Shown: one piece after another, positions 19,163 through 38,131 of the stretch
Position numbering within the stretch: position 1 is the first letter of the stretch
Layout of the letters: each line of letters begins with the position of its first letter
NCBI GenBank assembly: GCA_963715085.1
Contig: CAVQQU010000005.1
Coordinates: 30,538-94,537 of the forward strand
Source of the DNA: an uncultured Chloroflexia bacterium
GTDB taxonomy: Bacteria; Chloroflexota; Limnocylindria; Limnocylindrales; CSP1-4
Direction: 5' to 3'
DNA: 64,000 nt
Notes under the pieces: model-generated
Database searches by the model: none
The model's input: the letters and a program-made list of their open reading frames with translations, nothing else
What the model was told of the DNA's origin: nothing
Position numbers and translations under genes: made by a program

Positions 19163-19197
19163 CGCATCGCGCGTCCGGCTGTCATGGTGTGCCGGCC

Positions 19198-21149: not shown

Positions 21150-21207
21150 GTGGCCGGCGGGCTGCGCCACGGTGGGCGGACGCGCCTGCGGCCTCGCCGA
21201 AATGGCG

Positions 21208-21248
21208 CCAGCCGCGGGGTCAGCCCGGCCAGCCGCGGGGGCAGCCCG
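21208..21248. repeat. 20-nt direct repeat x2 (period 21)
   Basis: CCAGCCGCGGGGNCAGCCCG occurs at 21208 and 21229. Confidence 0.8.
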
Positions 21249-22643: not shown

Positions 22644-22644
22644 C

Positions 22645-23073
22645 GTGCGGATCCGGCCGGCGTTGTTCGGCGTCTTCGTCGTTCTCGTCTTCCTGGCGCC
22701 GGTCGTCGTGGCGAACGCCGCCGGCACCTGGGCGCTCACCGGCCGGCCCGCGGCCGGCGACGGCGCGGGCGGCGGCGGAGGAGAAGGAGGAGGTGGCGGC
22801 GGAGGTGGTGGCGGATCCGGCAACGGCGGCGAAGGCGAAGGTGGAGGCATGGGCGGTGGGCAGGGAAGCGGCGTGGTCGCCCCGGGCGAGGCCCGCGGCT
22901 GGATGACGCTCGCCCAGGTCGCCGAGGCCAACGCGATCCCGGTCGAGGAGATCCTCGCGGCATTCGACCTCCCGCGGACGACGGATCCGGCGACCGAGCT
23001 CCGCGACCTCGAGTCGGACGCCTTCTCGGTGGCCGCGCTGCGCGCCTGGCTCGCCGAGCGCGGGGCGCCCTGA
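22645..23073 (+). CDS. Small membrane-anchored protein with poly-Gly linker (hypothetical)
   Basis: AAGGAGG, then a GTG at 22645, 1 nt after the polyferredoxin stop. It has a TM anchor (ALFGVFVVLVFLAPVVVA), a GGGGGEGGGGGGGGGGSGNGGEGEGGGMGGGQGSG linker, and a ~60-aa C-terminal domain (WMTLAQVAEANAIPVEEILAAFDLP...). Confidence 0.5.
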   Translation: MRIRPALFGVFVVLVFLAPVVVANAAGTWALTGRPAAGDGAGGGGGEGGGGGGGGGGSGNGGEGEGGGMGGGQGSGVVAPGEARGWMTLAQVAEANAIPVEEILAAFDLPRTTDPATELRDLESDAFSVAALRAWLAERGAP

Positions 23074-23174
23074 CACCGCCCTGACACCGCCCTGACACGT
23101 CCGTGCTCGCCGGCCCGTCCGGGGCTGTCGGCGCCAACGCGCACCTCGGTCCCTGCGGTACACGCGCACTGCGA

Positions 23175-24313
23175 TCAGGCGCGAGGCAGCTCCATCCAGA
23201 CCAGCGCGCCGCCCTCGGGCGCCGTTCCCGCGCCGACGCGTCCGCCCTGCGCCTCCACGAGCGCCCGAACGATCGCGAGGCCCAGGCCCGACGATCCCGT
23301 GCGTCGGTCACGCGCCGGGTCAGCTTGATAGAGGCGGTCGAAGACGTGCGGCAGGTCCTCGGCGGCGATCCCCGGCCCCGTGTCCCGGACCTCGATCCGG
23401 ACGACACCTGCGATCGCAGCCCGGCCCGCCAGCACGACCCGGCCTCCGGGAGGCGTGTGGCGCAGGGCATTGTCCAGCAGCGCCGCCAGCACCTGGCGCA
23501 CCCGGTCGCGGTCCGCCACGACCGCCAGGTCCGCGGCCGGCGACTCGACGGCGACGGCGCGGCCCACCTCGCCTGCCCGAGCCTCCACGTCGCGGGCCGC
23601 GTCGCCGAGGACGCCGGCAACGTCGACCCGCTCGGCGTGGAGGTCCAGCCGGCCGCCCTCCGCAAGGCTGATCGTCCGCAGGTCGTCGACGATGCGCGTC
23701 AGGAGTCGGGCCTGGTCGCGGATCGTGCGCAGGTGCTCGTCGTCGTGGGCGTAGACGCCGTCGAGGACGGCGCTCGTGGTGGCCTCGACGACCGGCCAGC
23801 GGCGTGCGGAGCTCGTGGACGGCGTCCTGCATGAACCGGCGCCGGTCCTCCTCACCCCGCTCCAGGGCCGCCGCCATGCCGTCGAACGAGCGGCCGAGGT
23901 CGCCCAGCTCGTCGCTGCGGTCGGCCAGCCCCGATCGCCCTGGCGAGGTCGCCGGCCGCGACAGCCGCCGCCGCCTCCTCGAGCCGTCGAATGGGCCTCG
24001 TCAATCGGCCCGCCGCCCAGACGCCGCCGAGCGACGCCACCAGGGCCGCGGCGCCGGCCACGAGGACGATCGTGAGGATCATGGTCTCGCGGACATCGGC
24101 GAGGTGCTGCCCCTGGCCCTGTCCGGCCCCAGGCCCCTGGCCCTGTCCGGCCCCTGGCCCCTGGCCCTGTCCGGGGCCCGGCGTGGCGGCCGACCCGATG
24201 TCGAGCGACGCGAACCCCCGGTTGATGATCAGGGGCGTCAGGAGCGCGATGGCCCCCGCGGTGCCGATGGCCACGACCGCCAGGGCGAGCGCAAGGCGCG
24301 CGCGGAGGCTCAT
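23175..24313 (-). pseudogene. HAMP-containing sensor histidine kinase, two apparent frameshifts (about 23940 and 23800)
   Basis: The N-terminal TM/loop/TM/HAMP part is in ORF 23852..24394. The H-box FMQDAVHELRTPLA is in ORF 23320..23877. The HATPase part (LLDNALRHTP, VRDTGPGI, GLGLAIV) is in ORF 23175..23855. Confidence 0.85.
24110..24178. repeat. In-gene tandem repeat encoding (GQGQGPGA)n in the kinase sensor loop
   Basis: CCTGGCCCTGTCCGGCCCC-like units are repeated about 3 times. They translate (minus strand) to PGPGQGQGPGAGQGQGPGAGQGQGQ. Confidence 0.8.
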
Positions 24314-24338
24314 CGGTCCACGCCCCGGCCGACGGGAT

Positions 24339-25064
24339 TCACCGTCGCCCCGCCCGGTAGCCGATCCCGCGCACCGTCTCGACGTAGGCGCCACCGTCCG
24401 GCCGCGGGCCGAGCTTGGCCCGCAGGTTCTTGACGTGGCTGTCGATCGAGCGGTCGAAGGCGTCGAACTCCTCGCCGTGGACCCGGGCGCCCAGCTGCTC
24501 GCGCGTCCAGGCGCGATCGGGCTGCTCCGCCAAGGCGAAGAAAAGGTCGAACTCGGTGCGAGTGAGCTCGATCGGCTCTCCCGCGCGGCCCACGGTGCGG
24601 GCCACAGGGTCGATCTCCAGGTCTGCGAAGGGCAGGCGATCGTGGCCGGGTGGCGCGGTCGCCGGCGATGCCCCCAGACCCGGCCCGCGCCCGGTCGGGC
24701 GAAGGCGCCGCAGGACGGCGCCGACCCGGGCCACGAGCTCGCGCGGCTCGAACGGCTTCGTCACGTAGTCGTCGGCCCCGAGCTCCAGGCCGGCGACCCG
24801 GTCGATCACGTCGTCGCGGGCCGTGAGGAGGATGATCGCAGGCCCCGGGTCGCTCTCGGCGCGGAGGGCGCGAAGGACGTCGAAGCCGGTGCGGCCGGGG
24901 AGCATGACGTCGAGCACGATGAGGTCAGGCGGCGTGGCCCGAGCCGCCGCGAGGGCGGTGTCGCCGTCGTGGGCGACGTCAACCTCGTGCCCCTCACGCT
25001 CGAGGTACGCGCGGACGACGTCGACGATGCGGGGCTCGTCGTCGACGACCAGGATCCGGCTCAT
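24339..25064 (-). CDS. OmpR-family response regulator
   Basis: Receiver domain (ILVVDDE...DLIVLDVMLPG) plus winged-helix domain (LTRTEFDLFFALA...VETVRGIGYR). Confidence 0.9.
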   Translation of the reverse strand: MSRILVVDDEPRIVDVVRAYLEREGHEVDVAHDGDTALAAARATPPDLIVLDVMLPGRTGFDVLRALRAESDPGPAIILLTARDDVIDRVAGLELGADDYVTKPFEPRELVARVGAVLRRLRPTGRGPGLGASPATAPPGHDRLPFADLEIDPVARTVGRAGEPIELTRTEFDLFFALAEQPDRAWTREQLGARVHGEEFDAFDRSIDSHVKNLRAKLGPRPDGGAYVETVRGIGYRAGRR

Positions 25065-25157
25065 GGCGCAAGCATGCGCGGACGGCCCGACCGTTGCAGG
25101 CCGGGCCGTCGCGCGGGGTGGCGGGGCCGGACGACGCCCGGCCCGTGCTCGTGAATG

Positions 25158-25706
25158 CTACGGCTGGGTCGTGCCGGAGCCGGTTCCGTCGCAGGTGCCG
25201 TTCCCGGCACCGCGGCCCCGGCCGCCCATCCCGGCGCCCGCCTCACCGGCTGGACCGGCACCGCCCCGCTGGCCCTGCGCACTCGCGGGCCCTGCGCCGA
25301 CCGCCGCGCCCTGCATCCCGCCGAGCGTCGTGCGGTAGACCATGTCCTTCGCCCGCGTCGCGAGCTGGGCCTTCAGCGCGGTGGCCTGGGTCGTCGTGAG
25401 GGCGCCGTTCTGCACGCGCACGTCGATGCGCGCGGTCCACTGCTTCGTCAGCGCATCGACGAGGGTCTGCGGGTCGACCTTCTGTCGCTCAGCGATCTGG
25501 GCCAGCGAGAGGCCATCCTGGCGAAGATCGCTGATCGCGGCCTGGGTCAGCCCCAGGACGTCCGCGACCACGTTGGCCTGTACGCCGGCCCTCACGGTGC
25601 CGCCTGCGCCACCTGGCCGGCCCATCGGCCCGGCGGCAGCTACGGTGGCGACCACGGCGATGGTGAGCAGGGCCGCGGCCCCGGTGGCAAGAATAAATCG
25701 TCGCAT
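25158..25706 (-). CDS. Secreted hypothetical protein (helical repeat, Gly-rich C-terminus)
   Basis: Signal peptide MRRFILATGAAALLTIAVVATVAAA. Start taken at 25706; the ORF extends to 25772. Adjacent to the two-component pair. Confidence 0.5.
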   Translation of the reverse strand: MRRFILATGAAALLTIAVVATVAAAGPMGRPGGAGGTVRAGVQANVVADVLGLTQAAISDLRQDGLSLAQIAERQKVDPQTLVDALTKQWTARIDVRVQNGALTTTQATALKAQLATRAKDMVYRTTLGGMQGAAVGAGPASAQGQRGGAGPAGEAGAGMGGRGRGAGNGTCDGTGSGTTQP

Positions 25707-25895
25707 GGTTCGTGCCTCCACTGGCAAGTTCGTCGCGGGCCCGGCCGTTCGCGCCTTCGTGGCCGACGTCACCGGCGACAGGAAGAGCGTCGCTCGCCTG
25801 GGTGACGGTTCGATGCGTCCCCGGTGGAGGTTGCGTGGAGGCCGTCGCTCGCCGCGGTGCTGCGGGTTATCAGTCCCGGGCGTAGGCTTGCCGGG

Positions 25896-26969
25896 ATGAC
25901 GGGCCGCCGCGACAGGTCACCCAGTCACGGAGGTACGCGGTTGCTCAACCCCATTCCGGATCGACCAACGCTCACCGCGGCCGCCCTCCGCCGCTGGCTG
26001 CCGCCGCTCGCGCGGCGAGCACCGGACCTGGTGTCCGCGTATCTCGTCCCGGGCCGCGTCTCGCCCCGGTTGCGGGAGGCGACCATGCTCGGGGTCACGT
26101 CGATCAACCGCTGCGCGGCGTGCAATCGCGTTCACCAGCGTCTGGCGAGGGCGACCGGTCTCGTGATCGACGATCTAGGGGCCCTTGCACCCGAGGAAGC
26201 CGCCGCTCACGCGTATGGGCAGGCACTCGCGGTGGCCGGGCCGCGGGGTGTCTCGGCGCCGCCCACGCTCAGCGCACGGCATCGTCGCGAGCTCGAGGCG
26301 TCCGGCCTCGCGATGGAGCTGGCCAACCTCGCGGGCAACCGGTTCCTGCCCGAGCGAGCGTCGACGCAACGGCCCCAGATCGGCGGGGCACGGGTGGCTC
26401 GTGCCTACGACGCGGCGATGCGCGTCGCCGATCGAGCCGGCCTCCGCGTGGCACGGCGCCGGATCGCCGGCGGCGCGTCCGGGGACGTGCTCGAGATCGG
26501 GGTCGGGACCGGCCTCAACCTTGGCGCCTACCCGTCGGACGCGTCGCTTCACGCCATCGACCCGAGCGATCACGCGCTGGCGATCGCCGCCCGCCGCGCG
26601 GATCGCCTCGCGCTGCGGGCCGCCCTGCAGAAGGCTGATGCAGCCGCAATTCCCTATCCCGACCGATCCTTCGACGTGGTTGTCGGGACTTTCGTCCTCT
26701 GCTCGGTGGGGGACGTGGCCGCAACGCTCCAGGAGAGCCGGCGCGTGCTTCGGCCGGGCGGCAGCGTGCGGTTCCTCGAGCACGCGAGGTCCGACCATCG
26801 GTCGATCGCCCGCCTCCAGGGCCGGATCGCTCCGGGCTGGGCCCGGGCGTCCGGCGGCTGCCGGCTCGATCACGATGTTCGCGCCGCGATCGAGGGAGCC
26901 GGTCTGCGCATCACCGAGGAGCGATCCCATGCCGGCGGGCTGCTCGTTGAGATTGTGGCCGCCGCCTGA
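25896..26969 (+). CDS. Fusion: carboxymuconolactone-decarboxylase (AhpD-like) domain + class I SAM methyltransferase
   Basis: The CMD-like segment contains ...EATMLGVTSINRCAACNRVH. The methyltransferase part is VLEIGVGTGLNL...YPDRSFDVVVGTFVLCS...LRPGGSVRFLEH. Start uncertain (25824 or 25896). Confidence 0.65.
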   Translation: MTGRRDRSPSHGGTRLLNPIPDRPTLTAAALRRWLPPLARRAPDLVSAYLVPGRVSPRLREATMLGVTSINRCAACNRVHQRLARATGLVIDDLGALAPEEAAAHAYGQALAVAGPRGVSAPPTLSARHRRELEASGLAMELANLAGNRFLPERASTQRPQIGGARVARAYDAAMRVADRAGLRVARRRIAGGASGDVLEIGVGTGLNLGAYPSDASLHAIDPSDHALAIAARRADRLALRAALQKADAAAIPYPDRSFDVVVGTFVLCSVGDVAATLQESRRVLRPGGSVRFLEHARSDHRSIARLQGRIAPGWARASGGCRLDHDVRAAIEGAGLRITEERSHAGGLLVEIVAAA

Positions 26970-27095
26970 TCGCGACAGCGCCCTGTTGCGCGCCCATCCG
27001 TTCGCCGGCGAGCTTCCTGTCGCTGATCCAGGGCCAGGAGGCGTTGGCGTCGCGGTCCGCTCGGCTATAGTTGGCGCGGCCTTGTCGGCGTCCGG

Positions 27096-27171
27096 GCGGG
27101 AGTAGCTCAGCTGGCAGAGCGGCAGCCTTCCAAGCTGCATGTCGCGGGTTCGAACCCCGTCTCCCGCTCCA
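27096..27171 (+). tRNA. tRNA-Gly (anticodon UCC), CCA encoded
   Basis: A manual cloverleaf folds. Acceptor stem is GCGGGAG/CTCCCGC. D arm is GCTC-AGCTGGCA-GAGC. Anticodon stem is GCAGC/GCTGC with loop CTTCCAA. T arm is GCGGG-TTCGAAC-CCCGT. Discriminator is T, followed by CCA. Confidence 0.92.
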
Positions 27172-27189
27172 CTCCCCTGTTTCGTGCTC
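27125..27189 (+). repeat. Left copy of 65-bp direct repeat (tRNA-Gly 3' half plus 18 nt downstream)
   Basis: GCCTTCCAAGCTGCATGTCGCGGGTTCGAACCCCGTCTCCCGCTCCACTCCCCTGTTTCGTGCTC recurs at 33392-33456 with 2 mismatches. Confidence 0.9.
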
Positions 27190-27404
27190 ATGGCGAGACG
27201 ATAACTGTACGGTTGGCCTGCTCAGCGAGCGGTCAATTCTGACGAATCCCGTGCTGTAACGCTCGCCGACGAACCGAAGAGCAGCGAGCCCTTGGCGTGC
27301 GAGGACCGCCGCCGTCGACCGGGCTGGGTCCAACGCTGGGGGAGCGTCAGAGCGCTCCCCCAGTCAGCCGCGAAGCTGCTCCTGCACAACGCCCAGGCTA
27401 GTCG

Positions 27405-27433
27405 AAGAGGGGCGCCGACGAAGCGCCCCTCTT
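27405..27433 (-). terminator. Stem-loop 17 nt after the stop of the giant gene
   Basis: AAGAGGGGCGC / GCGCCCCTCTT forms an 11-bp stem with a 7-nt loop. The U-tract is weak (CUCUUCGAC). Confidence 0.6.
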
Positions 27434-27449
27434 ACGTGTGCGTGATGTT

Positions 27450-30400
27450 CTAGCGGATGGTGAGGTTGCCACCCTTCAGGGGCTGGAACGACGGTCCGGT
27501 GACGAGCGGGCTGACCGCTCCGCCGCTGAAGTCGGTGATCCAGTTGACCGTGAAGGTGTCGGGCTTGGTGCTGCTGCCCTTCTTGCTCGACCCGGAGTCG
27601 GTGAACGTGACCTTGAAGTTCACCGAGTCATCGACGAGTACATAGTCGTAGATGGAGGGGGCGACCTCCTGCCACTGGAACAGCTTGCCGATGCCGCTCG
27701 CGGTCCCGGTCAGCGGGTTCGACGACGTCTTGGCATAGGAGGTGATCTCGCCCTTGAGGCGCCACGCCTGCTTGTCGTGGATGAGGATCTGGCCGCGATA
27801 GGCCTGGTCCCTGTCCGACCACCGAGTGGTCAGGCCGAAGTTCACGTTCTTCGAGGCGCCGGTGATCGGGGTGGGGTTCACGATCTGGTACCAGCCACCG
27901 CCGGTGGCGGCATCGTCCGGCGTGACGATCGTGACGATGCCGTCGGTGTCGGAGGATGCGGCGCATTCGTTCGTCCCGAGGAACTCGACCTTGACGAGGT
28001 AGATCCCCGGGTCGAGGTTGGCCGGCTTCTGGGCCACGGCGGAGTTGCTGGTGCCGCTGGTGACGGCGGCGCCGACGCTTTCACCCGCGTCGCCGAAGTC
28101 TCCATCGCCAGTGAGATCCACGTAGAAGCGGATCGTCTGGCCGCTCACGTCGCAGGCGGCCTGGCCGTCGGCAAGCGTCGCCTTCAGCGTCGGATCGGTC
28201 GGCTCGATCACCTGCGTGTCGCCGCTGTAGGAGATCGTCGTGGGGACCTGTCGGTAGATCGTCACCGTGCTGCTGCCCGTGCTCGTGGCCGCGTCCGTGA
28301 CGCAGACCCACACGGGGTTCGCACCATAGGCGAGCTCGGTGGCGAGGATGTTCGACGTCACGGCCCCGGAGGCGTACGAGCCGCTGTCGACGACGGTGCC
28401 GGTGGTGCAGCTGGTACCCCCGACCCGGACGCTGTAGGACCCGGCCTCAGTCGCGCTCCAGACGGCGTCGACCGAGGACTCGCTCGGCGACACCACGTTG
28501 CCCGGGGCGCTGGTCGGGCTCGTGATGGTGACCGTTGGCGGCGTGAGATCGATCACCCAGGTGAACGAGGCCGGGGTGGCGTCCATGTTGTTGGCCTGGT
28601 CGATCGCCATGACGTAGAAGGTGTGTTCGCCCTCGTCCAGCGGGCCGAAGGTGTCCCCGCTCGTGCACACGAAGCTCGGAGGCTCGTCGATCACACAGCG
28701 GAAGCCGACCACGCCGCTGCCGCTGCCGTCACTGCCGGAGAAGGCGAACGTCGGGCTGGTGTCGAGGCTCGGGTTGCTCGGGTGGGACGTGATCGTGGTG
28801 TTCGGCGCGGTCGCGTCGATCGTCCAGGTGCGCGAGGCCGGGGAGGGGTCCGCGTTGTCGGCGCGGTCGACCGCCCGCACGTAGAACGTGTGCTGGCCGT
28901 CGGCCAGGGGGCCGAAGGTGGCGCCGCTCGCGCAGGTCGAGGGGCCCCCGCCGTCGAGCCAGCACTCGAAGTGGTCGATGCTCGTGATCGCGTCCGTCCC
29001 GGAGAAGGAGAACGTCGGCGTCTCGTCGTCGGTCAGGCCACTCGGGCCGCCCGTGATCGACGTGGTCGGCGGGCTGGTATCGACCTGGAACGTGTCGGTG
29101 TCAGGGGTCGGGTCGACGTTCCCCGCGACGTCGATCGCCCGCACGCGGAATGTGTGCTCGCCGTCGGTCAGCGGCATGAGTGTCAGCGGGCTCTCACAGG
29201 TTGAGAAGTCCATCGAGTCGATCCGGCACTCGAAGGAGGCGATGCCACTGCCGTCGCCGTCGTCGCCGGTGAAGCTGAACGTCGGCGTGTCGTCGTCGGA
29301 GATGTAGAGCGGGTGGGCCGTGATCGTGGTGGTAGGCGGGTCCGTGTCGGCCAGGCAGTCGAGGACGAGCGCGAGATCGGTGACCGGCGGCGGGATCGTC
29401 AGCACGCCGGTCTCGACGAAGGCGCCGCCGCCCGGTGCGCTGCAGCCGACCTTCTCGGCCCGCACCTTGTAGTAGCCGGCGACCACGTCCCAGCCGAAGA
29501 GCCCATCCGCGCTGGTCAGATCCGGGTTCGAGCGATTTCCCGGACTCATGATCGAACTCCCGTCAGCCACCACCACGAACGGGCCGTCCGGGTCGACCGA
29601 GCGATAGAGGGTGACGGTCGCGCCCACCACCGGATCGCCAGACGTATCTCGCACGACGCCGCTCGGGTCGATGTAGAGCGTGAACGACCCTTCCACATCG
29701 GGGTCGTCTGGATAGTCGATCCTGAACGAGATCAACGCTGTTCCATGGTGCGGGTAGGGCGCGGCGAACGTGCCCGTGTACGTGCCGCTGGAAGCCGGGG
29801 TCTCGACCAGCGGGATCGTCTGCACGTAGCCGTCGCTCGTCGTGAGCGTGGCCGTCCCCGTTCCGCCGCTGCGGCCGGTCGTGGTGACGGTCAGCGGGTC
29901 GTGCCAGTAGACGGTCGGCGTTCCCGACGTCTGTGTGCCGCTGCCCTCGGTTTCGACGGATGTGCCCGGCGGGATCGGAACCGGTGGGAACGGGACCTCG
30001 AACCCGCAATTGGTGCCGTTGCCGCCTTCGTCCTTCTGCTGGACCCCCACGTTGGTTCCGACCGTGATGTCGTACACGGCCGAGAAATCAGCCGCCCACT
30101 CGCCGCTGCCATCGGCTGTCGCGACGACACCCTCCCCGTCTTCAGCGCCACTGACGTCCACCCACACTTCGGTGCCCGGGTCGGCTGTCCCACGGACGAC
30201 GTCGGTCGCGGTGTCCACGTCGGTGATCGAGATGGCTCTCACCGTGTGCGTCCGGGTAATCGCACCGTAGGTCACGGTGATGAGCCATCCCGGCTGGAGG
30301 CCGGGGAACACGCCGCCACCCTCGAAGAAGCCCTCGGCGTTCGTTGCGAGAGGCAGCGTGATATCGGGCTTCTCCCCAGTCACAGGATCGTCGGCGGTGA

Positions 30401-33098
30401 CCGTCAGGTCAACCTCAGCAGGCCAGCCCCAACCGGCCAGGCCACGCCAGTCCAGGAACACCAGGAAGGATGGTGGCCGGGCGTCGATCTGCGTCTGGTC
30501 GCCGTCCTCATCGGCCTGGTAGGTGTAGGTCATCATCGGCGGCAGGATGTCGAACGCGGGATCTCCGTCCGCGCTCGGGACGGAGAAGTCCGCCGTCCAT
30601 GCTCCCGCGCCGTCCGACGTCACGTTGCGCAGCGGCCATGCCTGAAGCTGATCGTCCCCCACGAAGACGACCGTCTCGGTGTTCGGCGATCCAACGCCGG
30701 AGACCGTGTCGGCCACCGGGTCGATCAGGGTCACCGTGAGGTCGATGACCTCATGAGTCTTGGCCGTCGTTCCCTGGGAGACGGTGACGACGTGGCCCGT
30801 CTGGATGTTGAAGGGAATGTCGTAGAGCTCGAAGCGCCCGTCGCCGTCGGTCTCGGCGGTCGTGGAGAAGTTGACCGCCCCAGCGACTTCGGGGTCGTCG
30901 ATCTCGATCGTGACCTCGGAGTCCGGCGCCCACTCCTGGCCCCACATGTGTTCGGGAGGCTCGATGGGGCTCACCGAGAAGAACGATGTCGGCAGGGGCG
31001 CAACCTCGGCCTCGACCACGGAGGCGCCTTCGCCACCTGGAATGTCGTTCCAGCCGATCGGGGGCCGGTTCTCGATCTCCGCGAAGTCCTCGCCGAGGTA
31101 GTCGTTCGGCTCACTGGAGAACCAGTTCGTGTACGTCACCGGTTCGCCGCTCGACCACACCCAAACGCCCTCGACGGCGATGTCGCTGAGGCCGATCCAG
31201 TACCACGTCCCGAACGTCGCCACGACCCAGTCGTTCTCGGCGGAGTCGTTGATGGTCACGAGGTGGCCGCCGAGCGAGACCGCGTGGGCCTCGGCATCGG
31301 CCCACGACATGCCGTCCTCGACGTACACGTAGTAGTGGCCCGTGGCGGGGTTGAGCTGCCACCCGTCGGGCCGGGGAACCTCCCAGTCGTACACCGTGCT
31401 GTCGGCATCGGCGTCGAATTGCTCGGCGCCTCCGGAGGTGCCTGGCACGATGTCGAACACCCACTCGTCAGGACCCGTCACCGAGAAGTCCGCCATCCAG
31501 TTCCCGGAGCCGTCCGCAGTGAAGTAGCGGTTCGCGCCCTCCGTGTAGACGGTCACCGGGCTGCCGGGTGTGGGCACGGTCCCGGACACCTGGTCGGTAT
31601 CGACGTCCACGGAGGTGACCTCGATGTCGATCACGGTGTGGGACTTCGTGGTGGCCCCGTCGGTCACGGTGACGATGTCGCCCGGCTTGGCCTCGTACTC
31701 GATGCCGACCCCGCCGCCGATGCCATCGTTGTCGGTCGGGACGACATCGAACATGGTCTGGTAGTCCGGGGAAACCACCGTCGCGGGATCGTTGATGGTC
31801 GCCGTGAGGGTGGTGGCGACTGGCCAGAACTTGACGAAGATGCTGGCCGACCCGTCGGAAGAACGGTGCACCTCGAACGCAGTTTCGTCGAAGTCACGAC
31901 TGATGGTGTTCGTCACGGTCACGGTGACCGCGACCGTCTCGTCGCCCTGGGCGATCGTCGCCGGGCTGCCGGAGATCGATGGGCCGTCGAACGTCCAGCC
32001 GCCGGGAGCTGTCGGCAGGTTCGGCTCGCTGACGACGCAGGACGTCCCGGTCGGGATGCCGCCGATCGTCGCGCTGCCGCCTGCGGGGAGGTCGACCGTC
32101 CCGTCGTGGGCGGTCCCGTCGTCGCAGTCGTAGCTGATGGCGAACGTGCCGGTGAAGCCCGAGGTGAGCGGGTCGAAGACCTTGCTGATCTTGAGGGAGC
32201 CCTCCGTCGCCTTCAAGGCGATGCTGTGATAGCCACCGGCCGCGATGGCGGTGACGCCGGTGAGCCCCGCCGGCACGGTCGTCTGCCCCTCGACGTTCCG
32301 ACCCCAGGCCACCACCGTGCCGTCGTTCTTCAGCGCGAGGCTGTGGGAGAGCCCGGCCGCGATCGCGGTGACGCCGGTGAGCCCGACCGGCACGTTCGTC
32401 TGCCCCCAGCCGTTTTCGCCCCAGGCCACCACTGTGCCGTCGGCCAGCAGCGCGAGGCTGTGGTAGCCACCGGCTGCGATCGCAGTGACGCCGGTGAGCC
32501 CCGCGGGCACGGTCGTTATCCCCCAGGCGACCACCGTGCCGTCGTTCTTCAGCGCGAGGCTAAAGCGGAACCCGGCTGCGATCGCGGTGACCCCGCTGAG
32601 CCCCGCGGGCACGGTCGCTTGTCCGTTGATGTTGTCGCCCCAGGCCACCACCGTGCCGTCGTTCTTCAGCGCGAGGCTGTGGAAGTGCCCGGCCGCGATC
32701 GCGGTGACCTCGGTGAGCCCCGCGGGCACGTTCGTCTGCCCGGAGAAGTTGAGGCCCCAGGCCACCACCGTGCCGTCGGCCATCAGCGCGAGGCTGTGGG
32801 AGTACCCGGCTGCGATCGCGGTGACCCCGCTGAGCCCCGCGGGCACGGTCGCTTGTCCGTTGATGTTGTCGCCCCAGGCCACCACCGTGCCGTCGGCCAT
32901 CAGCGCGAGGCTGTGGGAGTACCCGGCTGCGATCGCGGTGACCGCGGTGAGCCCCGCGGGCACGGTCGCTTGTCCGTAGGTGTTGTCGCCCCAGGCCACC
33001 ACCGTGCCCGGGGGTGATGCTGCGAGAGCCACCCCGGGCACCCCTGGGCCACTCAATACGAGCATGGTGGCGGCAACCGCCGCAACGATCCGTCTCAC
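27450..33098 (-). CDS. Giant exported multidomain protein: 7x RCC1-like repeats, prealbumin-like domain, repeated beta-sandwich modules, C-type lectin domain, CarboxypepD_reg-like domain, 3x Ig-like repeats
   Basis: A single uninterrupted ORF. GGAGG lies 7 nt before the GTG at 33098, followed by signal peptide VRRIVAAVAATMLVLSGPGVPGVALAA. Seven ~39-aa GTVVAWGxNxxGQxxVPAGLxxVTAIAAGxxHSLAL repeats are present. The lectin segment carries EPN and WND motifs. Three repeats of the form PPTTxIT...TPTFxFxG...FxCxxD...G.HTFxVxAxDxAxNxDxxP follow. No LPXTG motif or C-terminal TM is present. Confidence 0.9.
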   Translation of the reverse strand: MRRIVAAVAATMLVLSGPGVPGVALAASPPGTVVAWGDNTYGQATVPAGLTAVTAIAAGYSHSLALMADGTVVAWGDNINGQATVPAGLSGVTAIAAGYSHSLALMADGTVVAWGLNFSGQTNVPAGLTEVTAIAAGHFHSLALKNDGTVVAWGDNINGQATVPAGLSGVTAIAAGFRFSLALKNDGTVVAWGITTVPAGLTGVTAIAAGGYHSLALLADGTVVAWGENGWGQTNVPVGLTGVTAIAAGLSHSLALKNDGTVVAWGRNVEGQTTVPAGLTGVTAIAAGGYHSIALKATEGSLKISKVFDPLTSGFTGTFAISYDCDDGTAHDGTVDLPAGGSATIGGIPTGTSCVVSEPNLPTAPGGWTFDGPSISGSPATIAQGDETVAVTVTVTNTISRDFDETAFEVHRSSDGSASIFVKFWPVATTLTATINDPATVVSPDYQTMFDVVPTDNDGIGGGVGIEYEAKPGDIVTVTDGATTKSHTVIDIEVTSVDVDTDQVSGTVPTPGSPVTVYTEGANRYFTADGSGNWMADFSVTGPDEWVFDIVPGTSGGAEQFDADADSTVYDWEVPRPDGWQLNPATGHYYVYVEDGMSWADAEAHAVSLGGHLVTINDSAENDWVVATFGTWYWIGLSDIAVEGVWVWSSGEPVTYTNWFSSEPNDYLGEDFAEIENRPPIGWNDIPGGEGASVVEAEVAPLPTSFFSVSPIEPPEHMWGQEWAPDSEVTIEIDDPEVAGAVNFSTTAETDGDGRFELYDIPFNIQTGHVVTVSQGTTAKTHEVIDLTVTLIDPVADTVSGVGSPNTETVVFVGDDQLQAWPLRNVTSDGAGAWTADFSVPSADGDPAFDILPPMMTYTYQADEDGDQTQIDARPPSFLVFLDWRGLAGWGWPAEVDLTVTADDPVTGEKPDITLPLATNAEGFFEGGGVFPGLQPGWLITVTYGAITRTHTVRAISITDVDTATDVVRGTADPGTEVWVDVSGAEDGEGVVATADGSGEWAADFSAVYDITVGTNVGVQQKDEGGNGTNCGFEVPFPPVPIPPGTSVETEGSGTQTSGTPTVYWHDPLTVTTTGRSGGTGTATLTTSDGYVQTIPLVETPASSGTYTGTFAAPYPHHGTALISFRIDYPDDPDVEGSFTLYIDPSGVVRDTSGDPVVGATVTLYRSVDPDGPFVVVADGSSIMSPGNRSNPDLTSADGLFGWDVVAGYYKVRAEKVGCSAPGGGAFVETGVLTIPPPVTDLALVLDCLADTDPPTTTITAHPLYISDDDTPTFSFTGDDGDGSGIASFECRIDSMDFSTCESPLTLMPLTDGEHTFRVRAIDVAGNVDPTPDTDTFQVDTSPPTTSITGGPSGLTDDETPTFSFSGTDAITSIDHFECWLDGGGPSTCASGATFGPLADGQHTFYVRAVDRADNADPSPASRTWTIDATAPNTTITSHPSNPSLDTSPTFAFSGSDGSGSGVVGFRCVIDEPPSFVCTSGDTFGPLDEGEHTFYVMAIDQANNMDATPASFTWVIDLTPPTVTITSPTSAPGNVVSPSESSVDAVWSATEAGSYSVRVGGTSCTTGTVVDSGSYASGAVTSNILATELAYGANPVWVCVTDAATSTGSSTVTIYRQVPTTISYSGDTQVIEPTDPTLKATLADGQAACDVSGQTIRFYVDLTGDGDFGDAGESVGAAVTSGTSNSAVAQKPANLDPGIYLVKVEFLGTNECAASSDTDGIVTIVTPDDAATGGGWYQIVNPTPITGASKNVNFGLTTRWSDRDQAYRGQILIHDKQAWRLKGEITSYAKTSSNPLTGTASGIGKLFQWQEVAPSIYDYVLVDDSVNFKVTFTDSGSSKKGSSTKPDTFTVNWITDFSGGAVSPLVTGPSFQPLKGGNLTIR
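32201..33011. repeat. 117-nt periodic intragenic DNA repeats (RCC1-like blades), some units near-identical
   Basis: For example, the ~75-nt string GTGACCCCGCTGAGCCCCGCGGGCACGGTCGCTTGTCCGTTGATGTTGTCGCCCCAGGCCACCACCGTGCCGTC occurs at about 32588 and about 32821. Confidence 0.85.
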
Positions 33099-33121
33099 GA
33101 CGCGACCTCCCAAGGGAGCCT

Positions 33122-33204
33122 CGCGGGTCGGTCTCGCCAGTGGCTCGGCGCGGTCCCGGCGGCCGGAGTGTGGACCGCGTGTCAGAGCCTCCCGCCAACT
33201 GGTC
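33122..33204 (-). promoter_or_regulatory. Conserved structured 5' leader, copy 1 (upstream of giant gene)
   Basis: The sense RNA is ACCAGUUGGCGGGAGGCUCUGACACGCGGUCCACACUCCGGCCGCCGGGACCGCGCCGAGCCACUGGCGAGACCGACCCGCG. It ends 23 nt before the GUG start. See findings. Confidence 0.7.
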
Positions 33205-33391
33205 ACCGTAGGCGGCGGTCATCAGTCTGGCGAGAGCCAGATGGCCCGGCCGCCCGGTGCGAAGCCGGGCCTGGAGCCGCCCCCGCTCCGGCTGGGACGC
33301 ACGGGCGCTGACGCCACCTCGTGACGACACGCTAACTGGACACGTTTCGCTCGGGCCGCTGAGCACGGTGCTGTTACGCATAGCCGTTCCG

Positions 33392-33456
33392 GCCTTCCAA
33401 GCTGCATGTCGCGGGTTCGATCCCCGTCTCCCGCTCCACTCCCCGGTTTCGTGCTC
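33392..33456 (+). repeat. Right copy of 65-bp direct repeat: truncated pseudo-tRNA-Gly (3' half only)
   Basis: Identical to 27125-27189 apart from TTCGAAC>TTCGATC in the T-loop and CCCCTGTTT>CCCCGGTTT. No 5' half is present upstream. Confidence 0.9.
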
Positions 33457-33466
33457 GGGACGCTAC

Positions 33467-34432
33467 TCACTCACCGTTCGCCACGACGATGACGACCTTG
33501 CCTTGAGCGTGCCCCCGGTCCAGATACCGAAAGGCATCGGCGGTCTCAGCCAGCGGATACGTCCGGTCGAGGACCGGCGTGACCCGTCCGGCCTCGACCA
33601 GCTCCTTGAGGGCGATCAGGTCGGCGTGGTTCGGTGTCGAGACGAACGCGCGCTCCACCTGGCGCACGAACAGTGGCATCAAGAACGCTTTCAGGATGTA
33701 GCCCATGCCGGCATGCCCGCTGTTGGGCATCAGCTTCCCCCCTGGCTCGAGCACGCGCCTGTAGTCCGCGAACGAGTGACTCGCAACGTTGTCGAGGATC
33801 AAGTCGTAGCGCAGATCGCGCTCGGTGAAGTCCTCCTTGGTGTAGTCGATGACATGGTCCGCCCCGATCGATCGGATCATGTCCACGTTCGGCGAGCTGC
33901 AGACGCCGGTCACCTCCGCCCCGAGGGCCTTGGCGATCTGCACGGCGAAGGTGCCCACGCCCCCCGACGCTCCGTTGATCAGGACCTTCTGCCCGGGCTG
34001 CACCTTGCCGTGATCGCGAAGCGCCTGCAGCGCGGCCAGGGCCGACGTCGGCACGGCCGCGGCCTGCTCGAACGTCAGGTTGAGCGGTTTGTGCGCGAGC
34101 TTGCCCTCAAGGGCGACCGCATACTCGGCGCACGAGCCGCGGCACTCCCCGTACACCTCGTCACCAGGCAGGAACCGGGTCACATCCTTGCCGACCGACT
34201 CGACGACTCCCGCGCAATCGAGCCCGACGACGAAGTCCTTCTTGGGCTTCGGGAACCCGACGTACATCCGGATGGGGAACGGCGCGCCACGCATGGCGAA
34301 GTAGTCACCGGCGGCAAGTGATGCCGCATGGACACGCATCAGGACGTCGCCATCAGCGGCGACCGGCCTGTCGATCTCCCTCGGTTGGAGCACGTCCGCC
34401 GAGCCGTAGCCGACCTGGACGACTGCCTTCAT
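33467..34432 (-). CDS. Zinc-type alcohol dehydrogenase / NADPH:quinone oxidoreductase family (MDR)
   Basis: [15 protein letters not shown]...; [23 protein letters not shown]. Its ATG overlaps the upstream paralogue's stop (ATGA at 34429-34432). Confidence 0.85.
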
Positions 34433-35419
34433 GGCGTTCCCCCGATGACGACAACGATGTTCCCCAGCTTCTGGCCGGTCTCGGCGTACCGGTGCGCCTC
34501 GACCATCTGCTCGAGCGGGAAGCTCCGGTCGACGATCGGGCGCAGTCGCCCCGCTTCGACCAGGCCGCGCAGGTAGGCAAGGTCCTCGCCCGTCGAGCGC
34601 GATGGAATGAACGACACCCGCTTCCTGCTTCCCCTCGCCGCCCACCGGGCGCGAACGATCTGCAGGAAGCCCGGATTGGCCATGAGCAGCCATCCGTTCT
34701 CGGTCAGCCGACCTCACCATGCGAGCGGACGGTGTGCCGCGGACCACGTCGAAGATGACGTCGTAGGTCTCGGGGCCGGCGGTGAAGTCCTCCTGGGCGT
34801 AGTCGATGACGCGATCCGCGCCGATCGCGCGCAGCATCTCCAGCTTGGGCGCACGGTCCACCGCGGTCACGTGCGCCCCGAGGTCCTTGGCGAGCTGGAC
34901 CGCGAACGTGCCGAAGCTCCCTCCCGCGCCGTTGACGAGGACGCGCTGCCCGCTGCGGACGTTCGCCTTCCGCAGGAACGCCAGGGCCTCGCCTCCCCCG
35001 TAGGGGACGGCCGCGGCCTCCGCGTAGTCCAGGTTCGCCGGCATCGTCGTGATCGCCCCGGTCTGGGGGTTCTCGCGCAGGCAGATGTACTCCGCGTAGG
35101 CTCCCAGGGGGATGCCCGTCGCCGCGAAGACCCGGTCGCCCTTCCTGAGCGACCTGACCTTCTTGCCGACCGCGTCGACGTCACCGGCGAGCTCCTGCCC
35201 GAGCACGCGTCGTCGCGGTTTGCGGATGCCGAACGCCAGCCGCATGGGCACCCAGATCCAGGGGGCGAAGTCGAACCTCCGCAGCTCGCAATCGGCCGCG
35301 CTGACCGTCGTGGCGCGGATCCGGACCAGCACCTCGTCGTCCTTCGGAACCGGCTTTCGCACGTCCCGAAGTCGAAGGACATCCGGTGGCCCGTAGGCCT
35401 GGCACACGATCGCTCTCAT
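34429..35419 (-). pseudogene. Second MDR quinone-oxidoreductase paralogue, one apparent frameshift near 34690-34740
   Basis: MRAIVCQAYGPPDVLRL...VNGAGGSFGTFAVQLAKDLGAHV is in ORF 33467..35419. The C-terminus ...[49 protein letters not shown] is in ORF 34429..34683. Confidence 0.8.
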
Positions 35420-35534
35420 GGGTCTCCACTTCGTTCAGTCCGTCAAGAGGCGCAGGTCAGCGTACTTCCGCCCACCCGGTGCGCGTCCCATCACGGCAAG
35501 CCGGAGCGGAGCGCCCGGTGCGGATCCGGGCTGG

Positions 35535-36218
35535 CTACTTCACCTGCTGCTTCGACACCGCGGTCGCGTACTTGTTGATCTGCTCGGGAGTCACCGGATT
35601 CTTGAGTTTCCAGCCCCAGGCGCCCGTGGTCCAGAACTTCGCGCCTGGGCACTTCGGGGTGGCGCTTGTCAGGACCTTCTTCTGGAGGACCTTGCCGGTC
35701 GCCGCGACGACGACGCGGACCGTCACCTTGTCCTGGTATCGGACGACCTCGCCGACCTCGCCAGCCTCCGTCTTGTAGAGGCCGCACGTGCCCGCCTTCT
35801 TGTCTGCGCTGTCGTAGCACACGACGAGCTGGATCGGGCTCGGCCATGGCCAGCCACTCGTCCGGAACCCCTCGTTGATGTCGACGTCGTAGGCCAGCCA
35901 CCCGTTGTTCATATCGAAGACGACAAGGGGGTGGACCTCGCCGGCATAGGGCGCGGCTCCCGGCACGGGCGTCCCGCCGTAGCAGGCATCGAAGAGCTCG
36001 AGCCGGAGATCCCGTTCGACCTCCCAGTTGACGTCCAAGCCCCCCTCTGGCCAGCCGCTCGACCATGGGCTTGGCTCGGGGGTGGGCGTGGGCTCGGGGC
36101 GTGGGGTGATCTGCCGCGGCGTGGCGGAGGGTGAGGACGCCCCGCAGCCAGCAAGCACCACGACGGCCAAGACGCAGATGAGCAGCTGCCGACGGTGGGA
36201 GCGCGAGACCGCGTCCAT
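35535..36218 (-). CDS. Lipoprotein of unknown function (paralogue 1)
   Basis: GGGGAGG lies upstream of the ATG. Lipobox VVVLAGC, then a Pro/Thr linker. Conserved motifs are shared with the next gene. Confidence 0.7.
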   Translation of the reverse strand: MDAVSRSHRRQLLICVLAVVVLAGCGASSPSATPRQITPRPEPTPTPEPSPWSSGWPEGGLDVNWEVERDLRLELFDACYGGTPVPGAAPYAGEVHPLVVFDMNNGWLAYDVDINEGFRTSGWPWPSPIQLVVCYDSADKKAGTCGLYKTEAGEVGEVVRYQDKVTVRVVVAATGKVLQKKVLTSATPKCPGAKFWTTGAWGWKLKNPVTPEQINKYATAVSKQQVK

Positions 36219-36347
36219 GACCTCCCCTTCCGAGATGCCCGCTGCGGGAAACGTCGCAGCCAGCCATGTTGCCGACGAGAGCCGAACGGCCCCCCAGGAC
36301 GCCCAATGCGTGTCCTGTCCTCCGGGAATGGCAGAGCGCCGGGTGGC

Positions 36348-36980
36348 CTACTCCACCGGCTGCTCCGATACCTTCGCCGCGTACTCGTCGATCTGGTCGA
36401 GTGTCACGTTGTCCCCGAGGAAGCTCCAGGGTGGCGCGGCTCCCACGACCATGCCCGTGCTGGCGGGACATTTCGTCTTGGGACCCACCAGCGTTGTTGT
36501 CTGGAGGGTCTTGCCGGTCCGCGCGACGACCACTCGTATCTTCACCGCGTCCCGAAGGCGAAGGAGCTCGCCGCTCACTCCTTCGACCATCGTGTAGATC
36601 CCGCACGAACCACCGGGCTTGGGCTTCGCGGGTTCGGGGCAGACGATCAGCTGGATCGTCGGGCTCGCCCACTCGCCATCACGCCACTTCCCGTTGATGT
36701 CGTAGTCGGGCAGCCAGCTCCATACGCCAGCCTTTCCATGGGGCCCTGCGATCACGAGAGGGTGCACGGTGCCGGCGTAGGGAGCGGCCCACGCGACGGG
36801 CTCCCCGTAGCAGGCCCTGATCAGCTCGGTTTCGGGCGCTGGTGTCGGCAGCGGCGTCGGCGCTGCGGTCGGGGCCGGCGTCCGGGCGGTGGTGGGCGTC
36901 ACGGGCGATGGAAGGCCGGTTGATGCCCCACCTCCGCAGCCAGCGAGGGCCACGGTCAGGGCGAGCAACAGGCGGCGCAC
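36348..36980 (-). CDS. Lipoprotein of unknown function (paralogue 2)
   Basis: GGAGGA lies 7 nt before the GTG at 36980. Lipobox LTVALAGC. Shares the motifs ACYG, APYAG-VHPLV, IQL(I/V)VC, G-CG-Y, V-(I/V)RVVVA-TGK-LQ and KCP with 35535..36218. Confidence 0.7.
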   Translation of the reverse strand: MRRLLLALTVALAGCGGGASTGLPSPVTPTTARTPAPTAAPTPLPTPAPETELIRACYGEPVAWAAPYAGTVHPLVIAGPHGKAGVWSWLPDYDINGKWRDGEWASPTIQLIVCPEPAKPKPGGSCGIYTMVEGVSGELLRLRDAVKIRVVVARTGKTLQTTTLVGPKTKCPASTGMVVGAAPPWSFLGDNVTLDQIDEYAAKVSEQPVE

Positions 36981-37127
36981 CGACGGTTCCTCCAGCCGCC
37001 AGTCTAGGCCCCGCGTTGCCCAGTGCGCGTCCATCCCGACGGCCGGAGCGGAACGCCCGGTGTGGAGCTGAGGGCCGACAGCGGCATGCAGGCCTGGGCC
37101 GGCGTAGTTCTGCCGATGACACAGCAG

Positions 37128-37157
37128 GACCCCCGACAGCCGAACCGCCGGGGGTCC
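37128..37157 (-). terminator. Stem-loop after the stop of 37171..37740
   Basis: GGACCCCCG...CGGGGGTCC forms a 9-bp GC stem, 14 nt downstream of the stop on the minus strand. Confidence 0.55.
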
Positions 37158-37170
37158 CGCGCTACGGTCG

Positions 37171-37740
37171 TTAGGCCCGGTAGACCTTCATCTTGACCTG
37201 TGCAGACAGTCCGTTCAGGTCGCCGGTGTACTTGTACGTGCCGGTCGGGTAGTCGTTGTCGATCCGGAGCGGAGTGGCCGAGCCGCTCAGCCCGTAGGTG
37301 AAGCCGTCGATCAGCGTGCAGTCCGCCATCTGGTCGCGGCACTGAAGGAAGAAGAACGGGGCGGTCCCGGCGATCTGCCTGGCCATCTGGTCGCAGTACG
37401 CGAGAAGCGTGACGTCACTCGTGGTCAAGCAAGACCACTTGGCGTTGAAGTAAGCCGCCAGCGCGGCCTTCTGGGTGTCACTCGCTTTCAGGACGAAGGG
37501 ATAGCGAGTGTCATCCGGAATGAGCGGGTCCGCTACGGTGTTCACGACGTCCAACGCCATCAGCCCGGGGTTCCCGGTGGTCGGGATGAAGAACCCGCCC
37601 TTGTACGACCCGGCGGCGAGACTGTCCTGACCCTCGATCCAGAGGTCCGTCGAGAACGTGGCGGGCTTGGCGGCAGCCACCGGGCCGGCGACCACCGCGA
37701 CGAGCGCGAGGGCAGATAGAACCGCGATGAACCGACGCAT
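37171..37740 (-). CDS. Secreted hypothetical protein (189 aa, Cys-containing)
   Basis: GGAGG lies 5 nt before the ATG at 37740. Signal peptide MRRFIAVLSALALVAVVAGPVAAA. The longer ORF call to 37839 only translates the conserved leader. Confidence 0.7.
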   Translation of the reverse strand: MRRFIAVLSALALVAVVAGPVAAAKPATFSTDLWIEGQDSLAAGSYKGGFFIPTTGNPGLMALDVVNTVADPLIPDDTRYPFVLKASDTQKAALAAYFNAKWSCLTTSDVTLLAYCDQMARQIAGTAPFFFLQCRDQMADCTLIDGFTYGLSGSATPLRIDNDYPTGTYKYTGDLNGLSAQVKMKVYRA

Positions 37741-37762
37741 GCGACCTCCTTGGGGCGCCATC

Positions 37763-37844
37763 CGCGGGTCGGTCTCGCCAGTGGCTCGGCGCGGTCCCGG
37801 CGGCCAGGGTTTGGGCCGCGTGTCAGAGCCTCCCGCCAACTGGT
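37763..37844 (-). promoter_or_regulatory. Conserved structured 5' leader, copy 2
   Basis: The sense RNA is ACCAGUUGGCGGGAGGCUCUGACACGCGGCCCAAACCCUGGCCGCCGGGACCGCGCCGAGCCACUGGCGAGACCGACCCGCG. It ends 22 nt before the AUG. Confidence 0.7.
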
Positions 37845-37984
37845 AGCCGGTCTACTCCGACCAACCGTCGCCGTCTATGTCCGTTGTGCCTCTCTTGGTC
37901 CGTTGCGCCATTTCTGGCGGCAATTCTCGTTGAGGGCCGATCGACCGTGTACGAGGGAGTCAGCCTGGAGCTGCCTTCGCCGGC

Positions 37985-38105
37985 TATGGCCCGATGCCGC
38001 TCGCGTTGACTGGCCGCACCGCCGACGGCCTGATCGTCCAATTGGCGGATCCGGACCGGATCCGCTGGACGGTCGGCCTCATGCGTGAGCCTGCCGAGAC
38101 AGCCC
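37985..38105 (+). pseudogene. Fragment resembling an LLM-class (F420/flavin-dependent) oxidoreductase
   Basis: Only ~40 aa (LALTGRTADGLIVQLADPDRIRWTVGLMREPAETA). No N- or C-terminal remainder is present. Confidence 0.3.
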
Positions 38106-38131
38106 GAGCCGCCCGCCGTCGACTCGACCCG

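Follow-up and report, generated by a model that had tools for sequence, protein, structure and literature searches.

How does the gene of a giant secreted protein come to stand by itself between a tRNA gene and a displaced copy of the 3' half of that same tRNA gene, with no integrase beside it? The question is raised by contig CAVQQU010000005.1 of an uncultured Chloroflexia bacterium, of which a stretch of 64,000 nucleotides (the window, to which all positions refer unless a related locus is named) was analyzed. In it, an intact tRNA-Gly(UCC) and the second copy of a 65-nt direct repeat enclose a single riboswitch-led gene. The original prediction, made from the sequence letters, saw here an integration into a tRNA gene by an element that either had lost its mobility genes or was mobilized in trans. 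We propose, with a probability of roughly 0.7, that the segment from 27125 to 33456 (6.3 kb) is a decayed, non-autonomous integrative element of the cis-mobilizable element (CIME) type. The segment is bounded by attL and attR, contains neither integrase nor transfer genes, and has att sites related to those of integrase-bearing elements, which are the features by which a CIME is recognized. Related loci are referred to by handles (L001 and so on), and the coordinates of the features are collected in Table 1.

The tRNA-Gly gene and its displaced 3' half

ARAGORN and the Rfam tRNA model agree on the tRNA-Gly(UCC) that had been predicted, which is the only tRNA gene of the window. A repeat search also recovered the expected 65-nt direct repeat, with 63 of 65 positions identical between its two copies; the mismatches are an A/T difference in the T-loop and a T/G difference in the 18-nt tail. 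The first copy begins in the anticodon stem/loop (GCCTTCCAAGC), and the 3' part of the intact tRNA-Gly, from the anticodon stem onward, is the core of attL. A pattern search allowing up to three mismatches found exactly these two copies in the window and none in 100 shuffles, neither blastn-short nor an nhmmer profile detected a third copy in the window, and a scan of a viral collection with the att pattern gave 0 matches. The T-loop mismatch (TTCGAAC to TTCGATC) had been taken as damage to the second copy; TTCGATC turned out to be a normal variant, present in the intact tRNA-Gly of 11 of 18 related loci, the closest relative, L001, included. The notion, drawn from L001, that attR keeps the native tRNA variant was dropped, as the A/T variants are mixed among full and partial copies and are weakly indicative.

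Table 1. Features of the att-bounded element and of the tract that follows it.
Feature	Position	Strand	Evidence and remarks
Predicted sigma-70-like promoter of tRNA-Gly, TTGGCG-16-TATAGT	27044-27071	+	Consensus scan, 9/12 matches; position only
Intact tRNA-Gly(UCC)	27096-27171	+	ARAGORN; Rfam tRNA, 68.8 bits
attL identity block (O)	27125-27189	+	Final 47 nt of the tRNA plus 18-nt tail
P' arm	27190-27290	+	Found in conserved form next to tRNA-Gly in nearly every relative; homologous to the interval from tRNA to integrase gene in L016, L028, L031, L033
G+C-rich hairpin	27338-27361		GGGGGAGCG-loop-CGCTCCCCC, read from sequence; no T-run; missed by terminator scan
Hairpin 17 nt downstream of the giant gene stop	27405-27433	-	AAGAGGGGCGC-loop-GCGCCCCTCTT, read from sequence
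Giant cargo gene	27450-33098	-	ORF of 1882 aa; signal peptide; GTG start; Pfam scan
c-di-GMP-II-GAG riboswitch aptamer	33117-33201	-	Rfam RF03169, 78.5 bits (gathering score 40), model positions 1-86 of 86
Linker with presumed promoter of the giant gene	33202-33308	-	Sequence specific to the window; L011, L022 and L023 share a different linker
P arm	33309-33391	+	86-95% conserved beside partial tRNA copies in L007, L011, L013, L018 (two copies), L022, L023
attR identity block	33392-33456	+	3' half of tRNA-Gly in a displaced partial copy, with its tail; similarity continues weakly to 33462
Second strain-specific tract, beyond attR	33457-38114		Absent from L001 and L011; synteny, Pfam, translations
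Intact MDR oxidoreductase	33467-34432	-	
Frameshifted MDR copy	~34440-35419	-	Reads through into the intact MDR as a 650-aa ORF
Two adjacent paralogous lipoproteins	35535-36218, 36348-37034	-	Lipobox LAGCG; no Pfam match
194-aa secreted protein, riboswitch-led	37171-37755	-	Riboswitch at 37758-37842
Further c-di-GMP-II-GAG riboswitches	37758-37842, 41500-41584, 43192-43275	-	77.4, 66.4 and 48.4 bits

Arms of the attachment sites and the integrase family

Judged by their sequence, the two copies of the repeat are the genuine attL and attR of a family of XerD-like integrases, because the arm-type repeats beside them and the spacing of these repeats match those of an intact element, L034, and of integrase-bearing loci at the same tRNA-Gly in relatives. 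The att interpretation of the original prediction is upheld by this correspondence. Both arms carry the arm-type repeat of the family, with the consensus ACACG(A/C)TAACTGG. In the P' arm it reads GAGACGATAACTG (27195-27207), about 25 nt past the end of the tRNA (27 nt in L034), and is followed by a decayed integrase-promoter motif, TGCTGTAACGC, at 27252-27262. In the P arm, ACGACACGCTAACTGGAC (33324-33341) ends 50 nt before O, the same motif having a 51-nt spacing in L034, and the motif TGCTGTTACGC lies at 33369-33379. The crossover presumably takes place in the anticodon loop, which we take to be the sublocation I of Williams.

The intact element L034 measures 6.1 kb and resides in tRNA-Arg(TCT). 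Its perfect 55-nt direct repeats begin at the anticodon loop, AGACACGCTAACTGG is present twice in its P' arm and once in its P arm, and the TAACTGGAC of the P arm stands 51 nt before the identity block; the interior carries a replication-type protein (AAA_25/DnaB_C), and the integrase is 63-64% identical to the family. At the very tRNA-Gly of the window, L016 has an integrase gene that starts about 105 nt after the tRNA and encodes a XerD-like tyrosine recombinase of 304 aa (PF00589 and a SAM-like N-terminal domain), of a type with more than 7000 relatives in the database. Four further integrases (L028/L029, L031, L033 and L041; 73-74% identity) stand 80-110 nt downstream of tRNA-Gly(tcc). In these loci the spacer between tRNA and integrase gene consists of a repeat, about 30 nt, GCTACAATG and a second repeat, and the P' arm of the loci devoid of integrase, the window among them, is a decayed version of this spacer. 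The distal att sites of the integrase-bearing tRNA-Gly elements were not reached within 5-11 kb.

Partial copies of the tRNA were also present in 7 other loci, among them L007, L011, L013, L018 (twice), L022 and L023, always with the identical left boundary in the anticodon stem. The genes that flank these copies are only about 75-80% identical, in contrast with the 86-95% of the adjoining P arm of about 85 nt.

Integrase homologues (53-64% identity) were observed in addition upstream of tRNA-Gly, on the opposite strand, in L008 (89-793), L020 (5515-6087), L015 (320-709), L025 (8-535) and L026 (1187-1576), coordinates being given with the tRNA on the plus strand. Several of them have an internal deletion of about 85 aa, and no arm repeat lies between them and the tRNA. 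Integration into the 3' half of a tRNA gene would not place an integrase on its upstream side.

Absence of mobility genes

The statement that neither the insert nor the window holds a recombinase or transposase was borne out. When the open reading frames (ORFs) between 17 and 47 kb were scanned singly with Pfam, no integrase or transposase domain was found, and a pooled scan of the 142 ORFs of the window gave no mobility family among the best 25 of 69 matched families, a range that limits this negative result where weak matches are concerned. The cognate integrase was not found in the window by tblastn, and the same search revealed no integrase remnant between the P' arm and the cargo gene. 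An autonomous tRNA-integrating island has its own integrase beside the att site, and this one has none.

Relatives and the variable slot

A scan of genome contigs with the upstream methyltransferase as query returned one close relative, L001, and 22 loci with this tRNA-Gly tail were obtained when metagenome contigs were scanned for the pattern. L001, an uncultured Chloroflexia metagenome-assembled genome (MAG), has the same methyltransferase and tRNA-Gly and shows 87-95% nucleotide identity in the shared flanking genes. It had been expected that relatives would offer an empty site, with tRNA-Gly directly followed by the MDR oxidoreductase gene. Such a site was not found: L001 has 1.8 kb of other DNA in place of window 27207-38114, with homology resuming at the PEMT gene (38114), and L011 contains a different cassette. 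The segment is also absent from L012 and L019, which have other content, and thus shows the variable presence among close relatives that is characteristic of islands.

A layout recurs among these loci, namely tRNA, P' arm, one minus-strand gene, c-di-GMP-II-GAG riboswitch, a linker of 100-140 nt, P arm and, in part of the cases, O. The slot is occupied by different riboswitch-led genes for secreted proteins in 4-5 relatives: the cargo is a giant RCC1/lectin protein in the window, a Peripla_BP_4 protein in L011, an SBP_bac_5 protein in L022/L007, a small secreted protein in L023 and an AXE1-like protein in L012, where a remnant of the P arm is all that is left on that side. Every cargo product with a visible N-terminus bears a signal peptide. 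The order P-O-P', as it would arise in a tandem array or a circle, was found in L013. The attR copies of L012 and L023 are interrupted at the anticodon-loop core or beside it, at the place where strands would be exchanged, and these breaks hint at past action of an integrase on secondary sites. The recurrent att-bounded slot with its differing riboswitch-led cargo is the one less ordinary aspect of the locus.

More complex arrangements were seen in two loci. In L018, inverted P-O copies (96-214, plus strand; 5752-5873, minus strand) flank 5.5 kb with a Rce1-like protease, a GH5 cellulase and a Mutator-family transposase. The first of these junctions is also present in L027, where it is followed by an inserted IS481 transposase and four riboswitch-led genes on the opposite strand.

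Interior of the element

One ORF, one riboswitch and two hairpins are all that lies between the repeats, apart from a 260-nt spacer (27190-27449) and about 190 nt from riboswitch to repeat. This agrees with the earlier description in its giant exported gene, its structured leader, now identified as a c-di-GMP-II-GAG riboswitch, and its likely terminator; the supposed lower-GC spacer is for the most part the conserved P' arm, a decayed integrase-promoter region and not anonymous DNA of the element.

The giant gene encodes at least six RCC1 repeats, DUF5979, a C-type lectin domain and Big_13/Big_3_3 Ig-like domains according to Pfam, and by this predicted domain content its product is an adhesin-like secreted surface protein. 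It is identical, with the same start, to the database protein P0124, and the only full-length match among 5.8 billion proteins is the protein itself; the identical 1882-aa sequence was found on long contigs of 126 kb and 425 kb, which are independent of each other, with fragments on a third. Exact-match look-ups gave no record for this protein or for the methyltransferase, and for the TetR protein a 1.5-kb contig only. As the full-length search was swamped by RCC1 repeats, it was repeated without the RCC1 part. No ortholog was found in this second search and a mosaic pattern emerged instead: the best match, L042, was 72% identical over 54% of the query, and the middle 2.5 kb of the gene (29355-31886) is 80% identical at the nucleotide level to a lectin gene on L042 that has different termini. 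At greater distance the matches were giant surface proteins of Chloroflexota that are fusions with substrate-binding domains. The giant gene is therefore a mosaic typical of the lineage, which is consistent with its host-like codon usage (see below). The RCC1 region at 32094-33080 (N-terminal part, minus strand) is a seven-copy DNA array with a period of 117 nt and 62-83% identity between copies, and this array, together with the middle part shared with L042, points to domain shuffling among genes predicted to encode giant surface proteins.

The 3' end of the riboswitch lies 18 nt upstream of the GTG start, a position consistent with control of the giant gene, presumably in response to a ligand. 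We know of no established ligand for the c-di-GMP-II-GAG variant. Promoter and terminator scans of the region detected the tRNA promoter only. The hairpin nearest to the stop codon of the giant gene is likely its terminator, a function suggested by its position and fold.

A proposed decayed element of the CIME type

These observations can be brought together in the following scheme. A XerD-like, tRNA-targeting tyrosine integrase of about 305 aa would have recombined the attP of the element with the segment of tRNA-Gly(UCC) from the anticodon loop to the 3' end; to go by the anatomy of the locus, this would have rebuilt the tRNA at attL and displaced the partial 3' copy to attR. The integrase gene would then have been lost, the decayed P' arm of about 100 nt being the sole remnant of its upstream region. 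Both att sites survive, each with a core and predicted arm-type integrase-binding repeats. The interior now amounts to one minus-strand unit composed of a presumed promoter, c-di-GMP-II-GAG riboswitch, the 1882-aa gene and the likely terminator hairpin. Such an element would have no mobility of its own and could at most be excised or co-mobilized by a related integrase, supplied by an element landing in the same tRNA (accretion). Today it is more likely a fixed fossil, as the first P' repeat is diverged and the second decayed. Of the two options left by the original prediction, loss of the mobility genes is better supported and mobilization in trans less so.

Several facts weigh against this reading, or at least against a simple version of it. 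An empty site, an excised circle or a second genomic location of the cassette was not found, and the Logan unitigs of public runs, which are short and break at the repeat, contained no 27189-33457 joint and no circle junction. Since no remnant of an integrase ORF is left, the loss of the integrase cannot be shown as a pseudogene, and its absence concerns the 64-kb window. Whichever sequence comes after it, the P' arm is equally long in almost all relatives; the integrase may therefore have been lost once, long ago, and the arm could be an ancient fossil, fixed before the arrival of the cargo, in which case a single integration and a single deletion would not be enough to account for the history. 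A further 4.6 kb beyond attR is itself strain-specific. Finally, the insert gives no compositional sign of a foreign origin, contrary to what had been anticipated. A 16-kb tract (27-43 kb) with 65-71% G+C lies between regions of 73-76%, and the low G+C of the giant gene is due to its amino-acid composition (G+C of 0.61 at first and 0.90 at third codon positions). When codon usage was compared, its synonymous usage proved to be that of the host, with a Kullback-Leibler divergence of 0.021, the lowest of 27 genes; the deviating composition or codon usage often taken to mark islands is thus missing, and the donor would have been a close relative, or the residence long.

Alternative explanations

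The recurrence of the cassettes could reflect an element family with such cargo beside its P arm, or homologous exchange through the riboswitches, an active cassette system being the least likely source of the pattern. Such a system, an unlikely alternative to the CIME-type element, would consist of non-autonomous, att-bounded single-gene units that are circularized and re-inserted at tRNA-Gly by an integrase acting in trans, a promoter-carrying and tRNA-anchored analogue of integron cassettes or satellite elements. The same architecture with different cargo in the window, L011, L022/L007, L023 and L012, the signal peptides on the cargo, the P-O-P' junction of L013 and the attR copies broken at the core all speak in its favor. 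However, no circle junction, empty site or duplicate location was found for any cassette, there is no integrase within 64 kb, the P' repeats of the window are diverged or decayed, and the examples number only 4-5, mostly on short contigs. The pattern would also be produced by an ancestral family with riboswitch-led cargo beside the P arm that repeatedly lost the rest. It is likewise doubtful that tRNA-Gly(UCC) anchors an exchange of cassettes in which a XerD-like integrase in trans swaps riboswitch-controlled surface or periplasmic genes one by one.

A comparably small chance is given to shuffling by homologous recombination, in which the att sites would be fossils and the giant gene would have arrived by general recombination within a riboswitch-led array, the 85-95% identical riboswitch/P-arm and P' sequences serving as portable homology. 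The riboswitch paralogues of the window and its relatives are indeed 81-96% identical over 73-90 nt, and the codon usage of the cargo is host-like. A PBP gene with its riboswitch (41690-43275) belongs to the core region in the window and has as homologue the att-bounded cargo of L011, the homology covering gene and riboswitch and nothing beyond them. L012 and L019 are identical until 12 nt past the riboswitch and then diverge; the linker of the window differs from the one common to L011, L022 and L023, and the giant gene itself is mosaic. What shuffling leaves unexplained is why the cargo always lies inside the att pair and why a conserved P arm with integrase repeats abuts the partial tRNA, and the creation of attR would still need an integration event.

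Very little speaks for a decayed tandem tRNA-Gly duplicate with the giant gene between its copies, which was the scenario named at the outset as fatal to the att reading. It is suggested by the repeat itself and by nothing more, and it was contradicted by the relatives, in which every locus has one tRNA and no second complete tRNA-Gly was seen; moreover, what precedes the partial copy on its left is not a diverged 5' half, since the conserved P arm with its arm repeats stands there, and the partial copies are all cut off sharply at one and the same point of the anticodon stem. An assembly artifact, in the form of a chimeric join where part of the tRNA is repeated, is scarcely credible, even though the source is evidently a metagenome assembly (its nearest relative is a MAG) and unitigs break at the repeat, given that the protein recurs unchanged on the two long contigs named above and in pieces on a third, that one unitig of run X1 reaches from 27143, within the tRNA, over the P' arm to 28356 in the gene and another covers 33448-33853, that the read depth of the gene is about that of its flanks in X1-X3, and that the same architecture occurs in unrelated assemblies.

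Comparison with known systems

CIMEs, which derive from ICEs or IMEs, are defined as elements that have lost their integration and transfer genes and retain attL and attR (PMC5704250). The closest comparison to the element of the window is offered by CIME19258 and CIME302 of Streptococcus thermophilus, which are related to ICESt1 (Pavlovic et al., 2004; Bellanger et al., 2011; reviewed in PMC5704250). As in these, attL and attR were produced by site-specific insertion at the 3' end of a conserved gene, the genes for integration and transfer have disappeared, the att family is common to autonomous elements in relatives, and movement is expected by accretion only. Unlike them, the element has an uncultured, high-GC Chloroflexota host, a target in the anticodon loop of tRNA-Gly(UCC) and a single riboswitch-controlled gene; its parent family has no known conjugation module, and its cis-mobility is putative.

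Within the Chloroflexota, 15 ssrA genomic islands of Dehalococcoides that lack integration modules have been interpreted as possible CIMEs (McMurdie et al., 2011; PMC3146451). They likewise show 3'-end direct repeats downstream of a small stable-RNA gene, in a region that is hypervariable between strains, as it is here, and they form tandem arrays. They differ in their CcrB-like serine recombinase, tmRNA target, 20-bp repeat and reductive dehalogenase cargo (PMC3146451), as compared with the XerD-like tyrosine recombinase family, tRNA-Gly target, 65-bp repeat with arm-type sites and secreted-protein cargo of the window.

The elements of L034, L016, L028, L031, L033 and L041 share with the window the start of the identity block at the anticodon loop, the arm repeat and its spacing on both arms. 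All of them except L034, which is in tRNA-Arg, also have the same target tRNA-Gly. These integrase-bearing relatives carry the integrase gene and small ORFs, which the window element lacks, having a host-like riboswitch gene instead.

Cargo at tRNA genes beside hypervariable islands is also a trait of the tycheposons of Prochlorococcus and their remnants (Hackl et al., bioRxiv 10.1101/2020.12.28.424599), where older insertions are pushed outward by later ones and the islands are strewn with partial tRNAs and pieces of integrases. Integrase lineage and host are different there, and tycheposons are defined by a tyrosine recombinase and a replication module that the window element lacks. With integron cassettes, lastly, the locus has in common single-gene units at one recombination site and differing cargo across relatives. 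It has, unlike them, no imperfect palindrome of the attC type and no intI/attI/Pc platform (no intI-like gene was detected by tblastn or the pooled Pfam scan), its ORF is not of the promoterless kind, having its own leader, riboswitch and presumed promoter, and its site is a tRNA.

The tract beyond attR and the wider surroundings

Four c-di-GMP-II-GAG riboswitches are found within 10 kb, and they lead the giant gene and the genes for the 194-aa secreted protein, a C_GCAxxG_C_C protein and a Peripla_BP_4 protein. L001 has a copy of its own at 19210-19294 (plus strand) and, just past the shared block, the c-di-GMP-II-GCG variant. Public contigs have 1-nt deletions at 34708 and 34711 in the upstream MDR copy, so that its frameshift may result from faulty assembly or from polymorphism within the population.

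A weak match (about 75% identity, E of about 3) to the tRNA 3' end and tail was observed in L001 at 13822-13864, adjoining the PEMT stop at the synteny breakpoint (window 38114); it may be the decayed distal att site of an original tRNA-PEMT junction. Because this weak O-like remnant abuts the PEMT stop precisely at the breakpoint, the ancestral neighbor of the tRNA was probably the PEMT gene at 38.1 kb, and the arrangement suggests that the whole of 27.2-38.1 kb is accreted DNA. A third att copy, in decayed form, was sought where the low-GC tract ends on the right, and the window has none; the weak match in L001 is the only candidate.

A repeat of about 60 nt (CACCGGGCG.TCCGCTCCGGC...GGGACGCGCAC) occurs in the window at 35468-35531 and 37018-37075, in L016 at 3902-3956 and in L027 at 3226-3286, 4701-4758 and 8221-8272. 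It lies about 40 nt upstream of the riboswitch in L027, is joined directly to the riboswitch 5' end in metagenome unitigs (joints 33198>35473), and has an inverted partial copy at 33283-33302. It may represent a promoter element of riboswitch-led genes.

The region to the left of the tRNA (18069-27095) is variable too, as core synteny with L017, L020, L021, L023 and L026 breaks off near 18069. L001 lacks a 4.2-kb block (21495-25714) that encodes a Fer4 protein, a histidine kinase and a response regulator. Between methyltransferase and tRNA, a PIN-domain toxin-antitoxin pair is present in L001 (11172-11844), L009 and L012.

Implications

The locus is a real att-flanked island devoid of integrase and, on the proposed reading, a decayed mobile element of a known, CIME-like kind, encountered here in an uncultured member of the Chloroflexota; its att grammar is well resolved, and the cassette pattern is noteworthy and unproven. 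It illustrates how large surface proteins are gained and lost at a tRNA-Gly hotspot in an uncultured lineage of soil and freshwater Chloroflexota, a hotspot used by small XerD-like integrases that belong to a very large family. The att grammar, that is, an anticodon-loop core and the arm-type repeat at fixed offsets, can be used for finding further elements and fossils of this family. In addition, the orphan c-di-GMP-II-GAG variant is tied to secreted and periplasmic proteins in an att-bounded slot, which offers a handle on its ligand through gene context. If the slot were indeed filled by exchangeable cassettes, it would represent a new way of shuffling individually regulated genes.

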